A stretch of DNA of 64,000 bases. Source: Verrucomicrobiota bacterium (GTDB lineage Bacteria > Verrucomicrobiota > Verrucomicrobiia > Limisphaerales > AAA164-E04). Below are positions 1,753 to 52,804 of this stretch, piece after piece. How positions within the stretch are numbered: position 1 is the first letter of the stretch; each line of letters begins with the position of its first letter. A program made the translations under genes and the position numbers. The DNA is taken from the NCBI GenBank assembly GCA_047947115.1, contig CP170459.1, forward strand, positions 4,864,001-4,928,000. The letters are read 5' to 3'. The notes beneath the pieces are model-generated. The model was not told the origin of the DNA. It did not search any database and saw only the letters and a program-made list of their open reading frames with translations.

Positions 1753-3726
1753 TTAACGGTCCAGGTAGTAAAACCGGCCATCCTCGGCCCCCACCAACAA
1801 TTCACGTACACCGTCCTTGTCCCAATCCACGGTGGTGGGACTGGTGGTGTGTCCGGCGAGTTGTTGTTTGGACAGCGGGCCCATGTTTTCGAAGTGGACT
1901 TTACCATGCTTCATGCCGGTGTTTCGCAGCCAGTCCACATTGGTGGAGTTGACGAGCAGGTCCAGTCGGCCATCATTGTCCCAATCCACCACACACAACT
2001 TGCGTCGCCCGCTGCCGCCATTCGTTCGGTTGTTCAATTGCAGGCTGGATGCATCCTCGCCTTGCTGCTTGTTTTTCGAATCAAAGAAGCCTCCACTGAA
2101 GATGCGTTTGCCGGGCATCACGTAGAGTTGGTTTCCTTCTTTGCGACGTTCGAAAAGCGCCAGGTGCCCTTCGTGATCGAGCATCAGCAGGTCGTTCCAG
2201 CCATCCTCATTCCAGTCCACAACCACGGGGGTGGTCCGCCATTGGGTGACCAGTTCGCCATGGCGCGGGGTCCACCAGGTCCAGGCGGGTTTGGGGGGAT
2301 TGTCCGGCCATTCCACGAGAACCGGCATGGCCTCGGCAAGCTCCGGTTCGGTTTTGCTGCCGATGTTGGGATACCACAGCACCTTGCCCCAAATGGAATT
2401 CACAATGAGGTCATGACGTCCGTCATGATTCCAATCCGCAACGGTCAATGTGGTGTATCCCCATTTGGCTTCGGCGGGGCCCTGAATGGATCCGTTGCGC
2501 CCTGCTTGCAGGTGGATGACGCGGTCGTTTGCTTTCAGTAGTTTGGGAAGTGCCCATTTCGGCGGGGAACCACCGTCCAAATTCTCGATCCAGGCTATGT
2601 TCCCTGATGTGTTGCCACAGATGAGGTCTTCGTCGCCGTCGGAATCCCAGTCAAAACTAACCGGCGTGACCAGGGCTCCGAATTTCAGGTCCTTTGCTTC
2701 CTGTTGGAAATACACCGGATGTTGAAACAAGGGCACGCCGTCCATCATCCCTCCGGTATTTTCAATGAATGCCACGCGACCGTCTTCATCGCCACAGATC
2801 AAATCCACATCCCCGTCCTGATCCCAATCAATGGCACTCGGAGTGATCATTTGAACGTGCATGCGAATTTTGTCCCCTCCATGCTTGAGGTAGGCGCCTT
2901 TGACGAACCGAGGTTCTTTGCGGGTGCCCACATTTTCAAAGAAAGTGAATCCATCCAGAAATTCAGCACAGATGAGGTCCAGATCGCCATCCAGATCAAA
3001 GTCGGCCATGTTGGGCATCGGGTTTCCGTAGACATCCAGATCCGCGCCATCGGCCTGAACACGGAAGGGTTCCTTGTATGCAGGTTCGTCATCGGTGCCG
3101 GTGTTGAGGAGAATGTAAACGTAGCCGTGCAGTTTGCCGCGTTTCCAGTTGCCTTTATCGTCGTAGCCATCGTCCCATCCGAAATCGTTCCAGTCATCGG
3201 TGCCAACCATGAGGTCCTGCAATCCGTCTCCGTTATAGTCGAGGAAACTCCAGACATTGAATCGGTCCTTTCCTTCGTTGCCCATCATTTTTTCGACAGG
3301 GTGCACGATGCGTGTCTCGTTCAGATCCCCCTTCAACAAGCCAACCAGTTCTTCGTTGGCGACCAGGACGCGTGGTTTTCCATTGACGTGGGATACCTGG
3401 AGGTTTTTCACGCCTTTACCGATGCGCACGCCGGGTTTGAACAAGGGTTGTGCGACGTTGCCCACGATGTTCTCGAAGAAGAAAGTACCGTTGTGTGGCA
3501 TGTCCGGACAGGAAACAATCAGGTCAAAATCACCGTCCTGATCATAATCAAGCGGAACAGGCCAGGCCCAGAGTCCAACCCCAAGATCCGCCTTAAGGCC
3601 GGGGTGGTTGTATTGGACGATGTCAAACGCGCGTGCGAGTGGCATCATCAGTCCCAATGCCAGCCACAAGCAAACAATACGTGGAATCAATGGAATTACT
3701 TTCATGGTATGCATGGAATCATGCAC
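1753..3726 (-). CDS. Secreted FG-GAP/VCBS repeat (beta-propeller) protein; true start may be 3705
   Basis: Many DxDxDGxxDL Ca-binding repeats (DYDQDGDFDL, DFDLDGDLDL, DWDQDGDVDL, DWDSDGDEDL, DWDNDGRLDL); signal peptide; 12 bp upstream of the sulfatase. Confidence 0.9.
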   Translation of the reverse strand: MHDSMHTMKVIPLIPRIVCLWLALGLMMPLARAFDIVQYNHPGLKADLGVGLWAWPVPLDYDQDGDFDLIVSCPDMPHNGTFFFENIVGNVAQPLFKPGVRIGKGVKNLQVSHVNGKPRVLVANEELVGLLKGDLNETRIVHPVEKMMGNEGKDRFNVWSFLDYNGDGLQDLMVGTDDWNDFGWDDGYDDKGNWKRGKLHGYVYILLNTGTDDEPAYKEPFRVQADGADLDVYGNPMPNMADFDLDGDLDLICAEFLDGFTFFENVGTRKEPRFVKGAYLKHGGDKIRMHVQMITPSAIDWDQDGDVDLICGDEDGRVAFIENTGGMMDGVPLFQHPVYFQQEAKDLKFGALVTPVSFDWDSDGDEDLICGNTSGNIAWIENLDGGSPPKWALPKLLKANDRVIHLQAGRNGSIQGPAEAKWGYTTLTVADWNHDGRHDLIVNSIWGKVLWYPNIGSKTEPELAEAMPVLVEWPDNPPKPAWTWWTPRHGELVTQWRTTPVVVDWNEDGWNDLLMLDHEGHLALFERRKEGNQLYVMPGKRIFSGGFFDSKNKQQGEDASSLQLNNRTNGGSGRRKLCVVDWDNDGRLDLLVNSTNVDWLRNTGMKHGKVHFENMGPLSKQQLAGHTTSPTTVDWDKDGVRELLVGAEDGRFYYLDR

Positions 3727-3737
3727 TCACCTTACCT

Positions 3738-5134
3738 GGAGGGGCAAGCTCCGTCTTGCGCCCACTTCAGACCTTAGAGTTCTTGAACCACCACAGCGCT
3801 GCAATGGAAATGTCCTTGGTTTTCGGATAGTTCGGGCTTCCCGCGTTCCATGTTTTTGGGTCAGGGAAGTTGTCAGGAGGAAGTTTGGGTTCGAGGTGGC
3901 ACTCGACCCTCCGGTTCTCCGGTTATTTTGCAACGGAGGGGCAAGCGCCGTCTTGCGCCCACTTCAGATCTCAGAGTTCTTGAACCACCACAGCGCTGCA
4001 TTGGAAATGTCGTTGGCTTTCGGATAGTTCGGGCTTCCCGCGTTCCATGTTTTTTGGTCAGGGGAGTTGTCAGGAGGAAGTTTGGGTTCGAGGTGTCACT
4101 CGACCCTCCGGTTCTCCGGTTCTTTTGCAACGGAGGGGCAAGCGCCGTCTTGCGCCCACTTCAGACCTCAGAGCTCTTGAACCACCACAGCGCTGCATTG
4201 GAAATGTCGTTGGCTTTCGGATAGTTCGGGCTTCCCGCGTTCCATGTTTTTTGGTCAGGGGAGTTGTCAGGAGGAAGTTTGGGTTCGAGGTGGCACTCGA
4301 CCCTCCGGTTCTCCGGTTATTTTGCAACGGAGGGGCAAGCTCCGTCTTGCGCCCACTTCAGACCTTAGAGTTCTTGAACCACCACAGCGCTGCAATGGAA
4401 ATGTCCTTGGTTTTCGGATAGTTCGGGCTTCCCGCGTTCCATGTTTTTGGGTCAGGGAAGTTGTCAGGAGGAAGTTTGGGTTCGAGGTGGCACTCGACCC
4501 TCCGGTTCTCCGGTTATTTTGCAACGGAGGGGCAAGCGCCGTCTTGCGCCCACTTCAGACCTCAGAGTTCTTGAACCACCACAGCGCTGCATTGGAAATG
4601 TCGTTGGCTTTCGGATAGTTCGGGCTTCCCGCGTTCCATGTTTTTTGGTCAGGGGAGTTGTCAGGAGGAAGTTTGGGTTCGAGGTGGCACTCGACCCTCC
4701 GGTTCTCCGGTTATTTTGCAACGGAGGGGCAAGCGCCGTCTTGCGCCCACTTCAGATCTCAGAGTTCTTGAACCACCACAGCGCTGCATTGGAAATGTCG
4801 TTGGCTTTCGGATAGTTCGGGCTTCCCGCGTTCCATGTTTTTTGGTCAGGGGAGTTGTCAGGAGGAAGTTTGGGTTCGAGGTGTCACTCGACCCTCCGGT
4901 TCTCCGGTTCTTTTGCAACGGAGGGGCAAGCTCCGTCTTGCGCCCACTTCAGACCTCAGAGTTCTTGAACCACCACAGCGCTGCAATGGAAATGTCCTTG
5001 GTTTTCGGATAGTTCGGGCTTCCCGCGTTCCATGTTTTTTGGTCAGGGGAGTTGTCAGGAGGAAGTTTGGGTTCGAGGTGGCACTCGACCCTCCGGTTCT
5101 CCGGTTATTTTGCAACGGAGGGGCAAGCGCCGTC
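3738..5134. repeat. Tandem array of 7 full 197-bp units plus an 18-bp partial unit; each unit has two inverted GGAG-tagged palindromes (REP/BIME-like)
   Basis: ggaggggcaagc starts at 3738, 3935, 4132, 4329, 4526, 4723, 4920 and 5117 (period exactly 197); about 11 biallelic variable sites. Confidence 0.97.
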
Positions 5135-5240
5135 CAACTCGCTGTTATTTCTCTCAAGAAAACTTTGCGCCTCCGCGCCTTGGCTTCTTTGCGATAAAAA
5201 CGACCAGCCATCGAAAACGTCATGAACACCCAAAGGTTCG
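5130..5240 (+). repeat. Dispersed ~110-bp repeat, copy 2, abutting the right end of the 197-bp array
   Basis: Inverted match to window positions 1-115; contains ctttgcgcctccgcgccttggcttctttgcga. Confidence 0.85.
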
Positions 5241-5323
5241 TTACAACCTGCATTCAACGTAGACCAACGCATCACTGAAGTAGATTACTGGAGGTGGATC
5301 CGTATCCCTCAACCATTTGTTCT

Positions 5324-5356
5324 CGCCAAGGCGCAAAGAACGCCAAGGACGCAGAG
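5324..5356 (+). repeat. Short-period (8-9 bp) CGCMAAG-type repeat
   Basis: cgccaagg-cgcaaagaa-cgccaagga-cgcagag; same motif at 47-77 (+) and ~5163-5194 (-). Confidence 0.7.
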
Positions 5357-5520
5357 AATTTGTTTACCTTTGTGCTCTGTTTAGTAAATGGTTTGGTACA
5401 AGAATTTACATACCCGCAAGTTTTATACATCCCGAAGGATCAAGGTTATGCACGCCACTACGATTATCCTTTAATTTCGACAAGTATTGGATGCGTTGGC
5501 GGGCCATCCCGCGATTGCGG

Positions 5521-5626
5521 GTGCGGTTACTTTGTTCATCTGGTCTTCCACACTTTGGCAAGTGCGGCTACTTTGTTCTTCTGGTTTTCCACACTTTTGC
5601 AAGTGCGGCTACTTTGTTCATCTTGT
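5521..5626. repeat. 41-bp tandem repeat, about 2.6 copies
   Basis: gtgcgg(t/c)tactttgttc(a/t)tctggt(c/t)ttccacacttt(g/t)gcaa at 5521 and 5562; partial copy at 5603. Confidence 0.9.
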
Positions 5627-5653: not shown

Positions 5654-7240
5654 TTATTTCCGGGTCCAGGCCAGCCAGCGTTTGAAAAGTCTGGCCACGA
5701 AGGGGGTAAGTCGGGTGCGGTTATAGAGGTCCCCCACTTTCCGGAAAGCATCGGCCTGGGTGGGGTATGGATGAATGGCATTGGCCACGGAACCCAGCCC
5801 GATCTTTTGGCTCATGGCCAGGGAAATGGCGCCAATCATATCACCAGCATGACTGGACACCACGGTAGCACCAAGGATCGTATCACTACCCTTTTTCACA
5901 TGCACCCGCACAAAACCCTCCGTTTCACCGTCAAGAATCGCTCGATCCACTCCCGACATGGGTTGAGTAAACGTATCGATGTCGATTCCCTGCTGATGCG
6001 CATCTTGAGGTGTCAAACCAATGTGGGCCAATTCAGGTGCCGTGTAGGTGGATCTGGGGATCAGCAATGAACTGTGCTTCATACTGCCTTTGAACAAAGC
6101 ATTGCGCACGACCGCGCGCGCCATGAAATCCGCTGCGTGGGTGAACTGGTGCGGCGAACAGATGTCGCCGGCTGCGAATATGTTTTTGTTGCTCGTTTGA
6201 AAGGTGTCACTGATCGTAACGCCTTGTTCATCGTAGGCCACACCTGCGTTCTCAAGCCCCAATCCTTCCACATTGGGTTTGCGTCCGGCAGCCACCAGGA
6301 GTTGGTCCACTTCCAGATCGTATCCCTGTTCGGGATGTTCATACTTCAGGATGACACTCCCCGATTCGGAAGATCGAACCGTGACATCGTGTGCCCCCCC
6401 GAACAAACGTATGCCATCATTTTCCAAGGATTGCTGTACAATGGCAGCGGCTTCACGGTCTTCGTTGGGCAACAGTCCTCTCTTGGACGTGATCAAGCTG
6501 ACTTCGGAACCGAACCGCGCAAATGCCTGAGCCATTTCCGCTCCGATGGGCCCCGCGCCCAACACGGCCAATCTTCGAGGAAGTTCAGTGAGGGAGAACA
6601 GAGTTTCGTTGGTCAGGTATGGGACTTGATCCAGTCCATCCAGGTCAGGAGTGGCCGCGCGTGCACCCGTGCAGATGACCGCCTTGGCGAAGCTCAGCCT
6701 CTGGCCATCCACTTCAATCGTGGTGTCATCCACGAAAGACGCTTGTCCCAGATAAACATCAATCCCCATGTCGCTGAAACGCTGAACGGAATCATGCGGA
6801 CTGATCCCGCTGCGCAGTTGGCGCATGCGGCGCATGACGGCTGCGAAATCAACCGTCACCGGAAGCACGACATCGTTGGACGGACCGGACGTTTTCTGCT
6901 TTTGCGATGGCTCTCCTATCGAACCGACATGCACCCCGAAGCATCCCGCACTATGCACATCAGCGGCCCTACGTGCAGCACTGAGGAGCGCTTTGGACGG
7001 AACACACCCGACATTCAGACAATCGCCACCCATCAGGGAACGTTCGATCAGAGCCACTTTCCCGCCCAGACCGGCGGCCACAGAAGCTGCGACCAGTCCG
7101 GCGGTCCCGGCGCCGATCACCACCAGATTGTATCTTCCGGACGGAACCGGATTGCGGTAATCCGTCGGATGGACCATGGATTGAAGCACACGATTGTGTT
7201 CGTCCATGGGTTGGAGGGCTTCAAATTCGGGTTGGTTCAT
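5654..7240 (-). CDS. FAD-dependent pyridine nucleotide-disulfide oxidoreductase (mercuric-reductase/LpdA-like, not true MerA)
   Basis: GAGTAG FAD motif; GGDCLNVGCVPSK redox disulfide; GAGPIGAE; AAGD; HPYPT; no C-terminal Cys-Cys. Confidence 0.9.
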   Translation of the reverse strand: MNQPEFEALQPMDEHNRVLQSMVHPTDYRNPVPSGRYNLVVIGAGTAGLVAASVAAGLGGKVALIERSLMGGDCLNVGCVPSKALLSAARRAADVHSAGCFGVHVGSIGEPSQKQKTSGPSNDVVLPVTVDFAAVMRRMRQLRSGISPHDSVQRFSDMGIDVYLGQASFVDDTTIEVDGQRLSFAKAVICTGARAATPDLDGLDQVPYLTNETLFSLTELPRRLAVLGAGPIGAEMAQAFARFGSEVSLITSKRGLLPNEDREAAAIVQQSLENDGIRLFGGAHDVTVRSSESGSVILKYEHPEQGYDLEVDQLLVAAGRKPNVEGLGLENAGVAYDEQGVTISDTFQTSNKNIFAAGDICSPHQFTHAADFMARAVVRNALFKGSMKHSSLLIPRSTYTAPELAHIGLTPQDAHQQGIDIDTFTQPMSGVDRAILDGETEGFVRVHVKKGSDTILGATVVSSHAGDMIGAISLAMSQKIGLGSVANAIHPYPTQADAFRKVGDLYNRTRLTPFVARLFKRWLAWTRK

Positions 7241-50932: not shown

Positions 50933-52804
50933 CACGGCTTTTTTCTCGGAGAGTCTTTCTCATTGATAATGAACGGAATCAATTTTTGCTAGACCCAATC
51001 GCCTAAATTTGCCATGGTAGGCCGGTATGAGCAGCTCTCAAAACTCCATCTCAAAACAGCAAATCACGGTTCAAGTCCTTTCCCCCAAACAGCGAGGTCG
51101 ATTTAACCAGCTCTTAAAAAAACATCATTATTTGGGAGCCACACCTCCGGTGGGTGATTTCATTGAGCAGGTCGTCCTGTGTGATGGTAAGTGGGCGGCT
51201 TTGCTGATTTGGGGACCGGCTGCACTCAAACTTAAGGATCGAGAACGATGGATTGGCTGGAATCCGCTGCAACGAGCCGAACGTTTAAAACTGGTGGTTC
51301 AAAACAGACGGTTTCTTCTTCTCCACAAAAAGGGAACTCAACCACATCTAGCTTCCAAGGCGCTTGCTGCAGCCTGCAAACACTTGCCCGCGCAATGGCA
51401 GGAACGTTTTGGATATCGCCCACTGATAGCAGAAACATTCACCGATCCTGAACAATTTCATGGTACTTGCTATAAAGCCAGTGGGTGGGACGCTGTAGGC
51501 ATGAGCCAGGGGAGCCGAAGGGATCATGTCGATTTCTATGTCGATGAAAAACATCCTAAGCGTCTATGGCTTAAAGAACTTTGCCCCAAAGCTCGAAAGA
51601 CCATTGCTTCCACGCAACTGCCGCACCAATTCAATGAAGCTACCGTGGCAGCAGCCAATGGCATCCTCCCATTGCCCCCAGCTTCTCAGCGCAGTCTTTT
51701 TGAAACATTTCAAAAAGTCAAAGATCCACGTCGTTCCAATAATCGTTTCCCCATCGGCTCGGTACTTACCCTCATTGCCATGGCTTTGTTGAGTGGTGCT
51801 AAACAGATTTCGGAGATCGCTCGTTTTGCTCAACGATTACGGCCTAACCAACGTGCCCAGCTCAGGCTACCGCTCAAACGAGGCACTCGTCGTTTCTATC
51901 AAGTCCCCAGCTACAGTGTTTTTTATCAATTACTTACCCGCATCAATCCCGAAGAGTTCACCAGAATGTTGAGCGACTGGCTCACGCAAGAGGAAGGGCA
52001 TCTTCCAGGAGTGCTGGCTTTGGATGGAAAAATGATTCGCGATGTCATCGGGACCGTTACGCTGGCAAATGTGGAAGATGGTTCCCCAAGAGCGATGGCC
52101 ATCATGGACCAAAAGGAAGACACTGATCGATGCGAACTCAAAGCTGCACAAGAACTGCTCCAGGCTCAGCCTGGTTTGGACGGCGTCACAGTGACCGCGG
52201 ACCCATTGCATTGTCAAAAACAGAGCGCACGTATTATCGCCGAAAAAGGAGGCGAATACTTTCTGCAAATCAAAGGAAACCAGCCCAATCTTCTCAAAAA
52301 GGCCCGACAGCAGATCAAACCGTCCCCCTTTTTACCCAAATCAATCATGGGCACGGACGGATAGAAGAACGAGAGGTGAGCTCTTCGAGTGCTCTCCCCA
52401 TGGCAACTGGATTTCCCTACAGTAAAACGATCATCACCATCCGCAGTCGGCAAACAAATCAGAAGACGGGAAAGGTGAGTCAAGAAACGCGCTATTACCT
52501 TTCCAGTCAATATGACTTTGAACGGAGCAGTGAAGAATGGATCAATTTAAGTCGCCAACATTGGGCTGGAGTGGAAAGCCGTAACCACTGGCGACGGGAT
52601 GCGACCATGGGGGAAGATCGCACTCGGCTTGGCAATCCCAATGCGCTGGCCAACCTGGCATTGATCCGCAATCTCAATCTGCATGTTCTGGCAAGGCAGT
52701 CTTGGGATGTCTGGTTGCCGGGCTTGATAGAAAGATTGGCTGCCAATCCAGCCGAAACATTGACCATGCTCAAAGCGTGTTAGCCTTTAAAACAAAAAGC
52801 CGTG
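50933..52804 (+). mobile_element. ISAs1-family-like insertion sequence, 1872 bp
   Basis: Terminal inverted repeats cacggcttttt/aaaaagccgtg (11 bp perfect); 10-bp direct repeat gcaacttgcc at 50923-32 and 52805-14 (alternative parse: 8-bp DR with 12-bp IR). Confidence 0.93.
51027..52783 (+). CDS. ISAs1-type DDE transposase with N-terminal DUF4338 (DruA-like) domain, split by a -1 frame change near 52324-52333
   Basis: ORF A: HHYLG, RFL, ETFTDP..FHGTCYKASGW, DPR, ALDGK, ADPLHCQ, IKGNQP; ORF B (-1): HGRIEER, RYYLSS, HW..E..HW.RD..GED..R. Confidence 0.88.

Follow-up and report, generated by a model that had tools for sequence, protein, structure and literature searches.

Results

Seven GGAG-tagged doublets form a tandem array between two genes

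The window, by which we mean the whole 64,000-nucleotide stretch of DNA analyzed, is part of a genome assembled as a single contig of 6.08 Mb. It carries an intergenic array between two protein-coding genes (Table 1). A preliminary description had read this region as seven 197-bp copies of GGAG-tagged palindromes, and the array is real: Tandem Repeats Finder returns 3738-5134 with a period of 197, 7.1 copies, 96% matches, and no indels. Eight A heads follow one another at a spacing of exactly 197 bp, from 3738 to 5117, and the eighth breaks off after 17 nt. We found that each unit consists of an A hairpin, a spacer of about 123 bp, and an inverted B hairpin, which together make a doublet of 175 bp, plus a linker of 22 bp. 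The description had drawn attention to the pair that faces tag to tag across each junction; the real unit is the pair with its tags outermost (unit positions 1-175), and the further stem proposed to close across the junction is absent from the minimum-energy DNA fold of both strands. Identity within the array is at least 95%. Eleven columns vary among the seven units; eight of them lie in the spacer and one each in the A loop (unit position 13), the B loop (162), and the linker (188), so that within the array polymorphisms of the palindromes are restricted to loops and linker, as first described, and the stems are identical in all seven units.

Table 1. Positions of the array, its parts, and the neighboring genes within the window.
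Feature	Position	Strand
Tandem array, 7 × (175-bp GGAG doublet + 22-bp linker) + 17-nt eighth A head, intergenic	3738..5134	+
Doublet copy 1, unit identical to copy 4	3738..3912	+
REP A of copy 1: GGAG tag, bulged stem, 6-nt loop; recurs every 197 bp	3738..3763	+
REP B of copy 1: GGAG tag on minus strand, bulged stem, 6-nt loop; recurs every 197 bp	3887..3912	-
22-bp linker, equal to the B-side flank; 8-bp internal duplication, missing from the congener's orthologous flank	3913..3934	+
Doublet copy 2, unit identical to copy 6	3935..4109	+
Doublet copy 3, unit one base from copy 5	4132..4306	+
Doublet copy 4	4329..4503	+
Doublet copy 5	4526..4700	+
Doublet copy 6	4723..4897	+
Doublet copy 7	4920..5094	+
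Truncated eighth A head (tag, left stem arm, loop); unique sequence beyond	5117..5133	+
FG-GAP repeat protein gene, start just left of array (context only)	1753..3726	-
Pyridine nucleotide-disulfide oxidoreductase gene (context only)	5654..7240	-

Other repeats occur in the window as well. Short phased repeats of the CGCAAAG type, also dispersed in the genome, lie at 5150-5360 and 40-90. A 41-bp unit is repeated 2.5 times at 5521-5623, just downstream of the oxidoreductase gene, and depth in four runs suggests that its copy number varies. The gene at 51021-52364, with DruA and DDE_Tnp_1-associated domains, probably belongs to an IS copy.

The doublets belong to a dispersed REP family

We searched the genome with BLAST and pattern scans, and then with a profile of the doublet. 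Genome-wide, the repeated entity runs from A tag to B tag over 175 bp with its tags outermost. The profile gave 114 matches, 67 of them full length, at 81 loci, eight of which hold more than one copy. On a crude ORF map 77 of the 81 loci lie outside long ORFs, and between co-oriented genes the two orientations are unbiased (15 versus 17). Among 30 full copies, one per locus, the tag is GGAG at 29 A ends and at all 30 B ends, and the stems show compensatory swaps in register: B pair 10-19 is G-C in 14 copies and A-T in 14, B pair 9-20 is G-C in 19, C-G in 6, and T-A in 3, and A pair 8-21 is C-G in 17 and T-A in 7. The "invariant stems" of the preliminary description are thus a property of the array, not of the family. 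Matches are confined to 4 of 40 relatives, all of the same genus.

The elements have the marks of REPs, REPINs, and BIMEs: a tagged imperfect palindrome, arranged as an inverted doublet that is extragenic and present in high copy, with a RAYT gene flanked by the same repeats in the congener G007. The doublet flanks that gene on both sides, and we therefore assign it to a REPIN/BIME family. The tag is GGAG rather than the canonical GT[AG]G, and for that reason we class the doublet as a variant and not as a canonical GTAG family. The arrays resemble BIME-2 in that two REP types alternate, tandem copies are homogeneous per locus, and copy number varies between relatives. Together, dispersal, compensated stems, and the flanked RAYT bear out the original proposal of a GGAG-type REP/BIME family, served by a RAYT and here amplified in tandem.

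Palindrome centers, those of REP hairpins included, are the insertion sites of an IS of about 1520 bp whose DDE frame spans 488 aa (G000:C1:392471 and some ten further sites; L212). Short palindromic inserts in some A and B hairpin loops may be its footprints.

A probable cognate RAYT is found in a congener

The RAYT foreseen in the preliminary description lies on contig C71 of G007. To one side of the gene (P0001, 175 aa) lie four doublet copies, and to the other a partial copy and a near-full one. Its product passes the NCBIfam model NF047646 (REP-associated tyrosine transposase) with 89.4 bits against a cut-off of 80 and matches the E. coli TnpA-REP structure 4ER8 (E 3.7e-8); in the alignment with the E. 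coli enzyme, Asp128-Arg129 stands opposite Glu100-His101.

No GGAG-type RAYT was found in the genome of the window (96% complete) when six-frame ORFs of at least 50 codons were searched with a 111-protein profile. Pfam Y1_Tnp (5 matches), phmmer, a motif scan, tblastn, and the same profile yielded seven Y1 genes, none of which carries the GGAG doublet: the four short ones have GTAG-type repeats of their own, and no REP was seen at the three long ones. A GTAG-type RAYT (44% identity) is present. Searches with P0001 in five further congeners (G001-G005, 75-88% complete) gave no RAYT. We consider it likely that the lineage of this genome lost the GGAG-type RAYT. Loss of a RAYT with survival of its REPs has been described in Pseudomonas (PMC3686654), and decay of REPINs after such loss in a preprint (10.1101/2021.07.10.451892), as far as the available text of these sources goes.

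The repeats of the short Y1 genes at G000:C1:5390959-5391453, 1508067-1508639, 2361010-2361828, and 2128217-2128747 number about 55, 16, 45, and 4 copies, respectively, across the genome under strict patterns. The gene at 1508067 has an in-frame stop shortly past its catalytic motif and is flanked by a GTAG doublet of about 175 bp and similar build. One long Y1 gene (G000:C1:774604-777927, L003) lies within 31-bp inverted repeats of the TIRtron type, and 495 bp of its 3′ end are duplicated.

The GGAG tag co-varies with the residue at E. coli His101

As relatives of P0001 we gathered 111 RAYT loci, the best matches of each search. An automated caller assigned GGAG to loci with Thr (27), Arg (21), Val (1), and His (2) at the position of E. 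coli His101 and GTAG to loci with His (32) and Asn, Gln, and Arg (1 each), with no call for 25; both GGAG-His calls were inverse-strand errors. We then curated the calls by eye with the residues known, that is, not blind, and kept 106 rows after dropping four that were poor or long-branch and one duplicate. In the curated set all 57 GGAG loci have Thr (31), Arg (25), or Val (1) and none has His, while 44 of 46 GT[AG]G loci have His (the others Arg and Tyr); three remain uncalled. No other column distinguishes the two groups as well as that of His101 (0.99). In a tree from which those columns were left out, tag changes number five and residue changes six; independent contrasts on supported branches number only three, all in the same direction, which is not significant (sign test, p 0.25). 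One locus with Arg and GGAG (L111) is nested within a supported His/GTAG clade, and one Arg enzyme with GTAG (L061) is a counter-example.

The accessible parts of the structural work on E. coli TnpA-REP suggest how the two changes would fit. T2 of the tag is hydrogen-bonded to the protein, and A3 and G4 are free to read the CT cut site (PMC3479197); H101 is among the guide-binding residues labeled in Fig. S11 of Quentin 2018 (PMC6006769); and the enzyme tolerates no tag substitution (PMC3479197, PMC8266576). Replacing T by G at tag position 2 would thus leave the cut site as it is and call for a change in the protein, which fits the residue change observed. By analogy with the E. coli enzyme (PMC3479197, PMC8266576), the GGAG-type RAYT would bind hairpin and tag strand-specifically as single-stranded DNA and cut at CT, a cut we predict to be retained because the bases that read it, A3 and G4, are unchanged and only the protein-read base 2 has gone from T to G. 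The co-variation across these sequences makes it reasonably probable that His101 to Thr or Arg accommodates G at tag base 2.

GGAG tags thus mark a wide group of RAYTs in Verrucomicrobiota, which is new. A literature search, with subscription journals largely outside its coverage, found no GGAG class of REPs. The string "GGAG" is absent from the main text of PMC3733652, PMC6006769, PMC8266576, and PMC12306157; figures of these papers, for instance Fig. 1 and the eps supplement of PMC3733652, might still show a family of this kind. Two rows of Table S1 of Quentin 2018 (PMC6006769) begin with GGAG, so that the tag does have some record.

A supported RAYT clade with GTGG tags (L074, L089, L093, L100, L109, L110, L113) shares the motif FQSRGWHH (FQSLGWHH in L074), possibly a second tag-linked signature.

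The array probably grew by local recombination

We conclude, with a probability of about 0.8, that the array consists of seven local copies of a 175-bp REP doublet and likely grew from a single resident copy by unequal recombination. The hairpins of this doublet also flank the RAYT of a sister species, which likely binds and cuts them in single-stranded form. The orthologous site in the congener G001 holds one copy, 86% identical. Copy numbers at orthologous sites, G001 versus here, are 1 versus 7, 1 versus 5, and 2 versus 3, counts to be read with the fragmentation of the G001 assembly in mind, which could have collapsed an array. The five arrays are only 62-71% alike among themselves; thus, each expanded from the copy resident at its site. 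The linkers consist of B-side flank and measure 12-13 bp in the four other arrays, 13 bp in the array flanking the RAYT of G007, and 22 bp in the window, where the extra length is due to an 8-bp duplication. At a distance of one linker past the last B tag, the window array and two others close with an A-like head, either full or decayed.

We favor, with some reserve, the following course. The locus would have started as one doublet with a partial A head 13-14 bp downstream; exchange between the head of the element and the downstream head would have given the first duplication, and unequal crossing-over would then have raised the number to seven units. No host function is needed to explain the array.

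The main rival for its growth is that the same element was multiplied directly by RAYT cut-and-join, in a rolling-circle-like form of BIME amplification. The enzyme would have been either the GGAG-type RAYT, at a time when its gene was still present, or the GTAG-type RAYT of this genome, working on GGAG. Strand transfer at an iREP/linker CT has been demonstrated and tandem growth modeled on it, according to the available text of Ton-Hoang 2012 (PMC3333891), and the placement of the junctions at the A tag and the linker lengths of 12-13 bp in the four other arrays and 13 bp in that of G007 fit such a route. Against it, the six-frame profile search found no GGAG-type RAYT in this genome, and the intolerance of E. 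coli TnpA-REP to tag substitution, as stated in the accessible parts of PMC3479197 and PMC8266576, tells against use of the GTAG-type enzyme. Moreover, units recur as identical blocks (1 and 4, 2 and 6; units 3 and 5 are one base apart), which fits recombination. We therefore regard direct amplification by a RAYT as unlikely. A mixed route would combine a RAYT-made first duplication with later recombination.

Many dispersed copies are wrapped in a MITE

Comparison of 31 G001 loci with this genome revealed nine that are empty here, and the piece missing is longer than 175 bp. The extra arms end in 12-bp inverted repeats and define an element of about 233 bp without an ORF. In this genome eight single loci have both ends and 20 loci have one. 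One end or more survives at 28 of the 81 loci (background 1%), and seven of the eight multi-copy loci keep none. This genome, G001, and metagenome contigs together supplied 22 end-bounded copies. Ten are flanked by a 9-bp target duplication (9-mers matching at 8 or 9 of 9 positions), duplications of length 8 occur in two copies only and of other lengths in none, and mismatched pairings gave 0 of 462. The remaining 12 have no clear duplication, one being off by one. For seven of 15 foreign copies the orthologous site in this genome is empty. A fixed 9-bp duplication is a mark of DDE transposition and not of Y1 HUH enzymes. We conclude that a DDE transposase probably moved the MITE-wrapped copies in trans. 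The reading of the repeats as REP/BIME was right about the identity of the family; it missed the lack of a detectable cognate RAYT in this genome and the MITE, with its 9-bp target duplications, around many dispersed copies.

The same 12-bp ends bound other cargo. In G009 they enclose elements of 93 and 153 bp without the GGAG doublet, and in G050 elements of 188-191 bp with a different hairpin pair, one with an 8/9 duplication. REP-like hairpin pairs of other kinds lie between these ends at L335-L337 (G050) and L328 (G095), which belong to different families of the order. One copy (G000:C1:1033647-1033820) has the doublet inverted relative to the MITE arms, which suggests that the doublet is a separate module able to flip at its tags. 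At G001 contig ends (L229, L235, L250-L254) there is a second GGAG-headed repeat, located in some cases within the left arm of this MITE or at 15 bp from a B tag; it was not found in this genome.

Searches of this genome, 401 genomes of the order, viral contigs, metagenome matches, and plasmids brought up no MITE transposase or autonomous IS with the same ends; the plasmid search was empty. No IS256 was found as a partner, and none of the multi-copy repeats has the 12-bp ends. Matches to a 16-mer occurred in 44 of the 401 genomes and in viral contigs, most of the single ones inspected being coding sequence without a partner end. In enterobacterial prophage contigs (L288, L292, L299) the same 12-mer faces outward at the ends of an insertion, ends that may resemble those of the IS3/IS150 type. 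A literature search, covering little of the subscription journals, found no MITE-borne REPIN. RAYT copies linked to an IS1106 fragment in Neisseria, as given in the available text of a preprint (10.1101/2021.07.10.451892), are a partial precedent for hitchhiking.

Could the MITE account for everything, with a DDE transposase delivering all copies, that of the window included, the bare ones having since lost their ends and REP ancestry no longer mattering? The 28 loci with ends speak for this, and the split between bare and wrapped copies is not clean, because some bare copies retain arm remnants. In a tree of 53 copies, rooted at its midpoint only, wrapped copies fall into few groups with short branches, end status changes four times, and the copies of G007 are bare; the long terminal branches of bare copies also speak for this reading. 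However, no remnant of the MITE ends is present at the window array or its G001 orthologue (p 0.45/0.49 and 0.35/0.97), whereas the tags of both are preserved; in G007 the doublets around the RAYT are bare and the end motif has zero matches; and the ends also bound elements that lack the GGAG doublet or hold another REP pair. We judge this alternative improbable and retain the REP doublet as the primary element.

Structured RNA, CRISPR, and assembly error are unlikely to account for the array

The preliminary description had offered an array of structured RNA units as an alternative, and we found no support for it in Rfam, folding, or orientation relative to transcription. On this account the units would be structured RNAs or regulatory leaders, retained because they act as RNA, and their amplification would serve dosage. 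The spacer is conserved at 62-71% with fixed motifs, and a gene start follows shortly after the array; four RNA runs share 0.34-0.47 of the words of a 3.6-kb stretch that takes in the flanking genes, which we do not count as evidence. Rfam gave only two chance matches far below the gathering score, the consensus fold of 53 copies pairs only the near-invariant ends with no co-varying interior helix, and there is no strand bias relative to transcription. An RNA function is therefore very improbable as the reason for the array. A CRISPR array, with identical short repeats and unique spacers, was rejected, as whole 197-bp units repeat here.

An assembly artifact has a negligible chance: no contig in four runs spans the whole array, so that the count of seven rests on the given assembly, but the 11 variable columns occur in recurring haplotypes, unit depth exceeds flank depth, and contigs pass from unit to unit in separate studies. 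The array is present in contigs of four sequencing studies (one run may be the source sample). In run X11 a 227-nt (197 + 30) unitig reaches a depth of 16.3, compared with 5.1 for the flank, and in run X1 a contig joint goes back 197.

Discussion

Comparisons in this section are with the available text of the papers cited. One close system is E. coli BIME-2 with TnpA-REP (Ton-Hoang 2012, PMC3333891; Messing 2012, PMC3479197, PDB 4ER8). Both have two different bulged REPs in inverted arrangement, tandem copies well conserved per locus, copy numbers that vary between strains, and a Y1 HUH transposase gene bordered by the repeats. Here, in contrast, the tag is GGAG and not GTAG, the spacer is long (about 123 bp) and conserved, the cognate enzyme has Arg or Thr at His101, and many copies are MITE-wrapped with 9-bp duplications. 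The REPINs of Pseudomonas fluorescens SBW25 (Bertels & Rainey 2011, PMC3116915) are likewise replicative doublets with tags outside; their GI-GIII arrays set two REP types in tandem with a 184-bp period and up to 12 members, and tandem clusters there also include flanking DNA. Their tags, unlike ours, are GTGG or GTAG, and that text reports neither target duplication nor MITE wrapper. Among PVC-phylum REPs, the GTAG families of Opitutus terrae and Rhodopirellula baltica (Di Nocera 2013, PMC3733652) share the head-head dimers with tags outside and the clusters reiterated with flanking DNA, whereas the tags named there (GYAG, GYRG, GTRG, GTMG, GTGG) never have G at position 2.

The same paper describes fusions of REPs to unrelated inverted repeats in Pseudomonas. 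It also describes TIRtrons (TIRYT), whose ends fit GGGGWSAS and border a tyrosine transposase gene, unlike the 12-bp ends here, which border no gene and come with 9-bp duplications. The wrapped elements described here resemble bacterial DDE-mobilized MITEs (PMC3733652, PMC2817692), which measure 70-300 bp, are non-coding, have terminal inverted repeats and a target duplication of fixed length, and differ in presence between relatives. They depart from usual MITEs in carrying a complete REP doublet that descends from the HUH world of mobile elements, and the window array has no MITE ends.

The window array itself is an ordinary BIME-like local expansion; what is new is the GGAG enzyme group, with its candidate specificity residue, and the MITE-borne spread. 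Our joint reading, which we put forward tentatively and at somewhat less than even odds, is that a one-residue tag code (His101 for GT[AG]G, Thr or Arg for GGAG) operates in a large undescribed RAYT group of Verrucomicrobiota, and that REPINs can outlive the loss of their RAYT by a switch to DDE-MITE mobilization, being captured between DDE-type MITE ends and spread thereby. On this reading such captures took place in two or more families of the order, each time of a different REP pair.

REP surveys have looked for GT[AG]G feet, which makes families with GGAG, and the enzymes that go with them, easy to miss; more than 50 GGAG loci turned up in one phylum. The natural pairing of tag and residue offers a direct test of how TnpA-REP reads its guide, which tag point mutants of E. 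coli could not give, and could help to retarget these small single-stranded DNA nucleases. Published models expect REPINs to decay once their RAYT is gone. The young MITE-wrapped copies suggest an escape route, one that would link HUH and DDE mobile elements.
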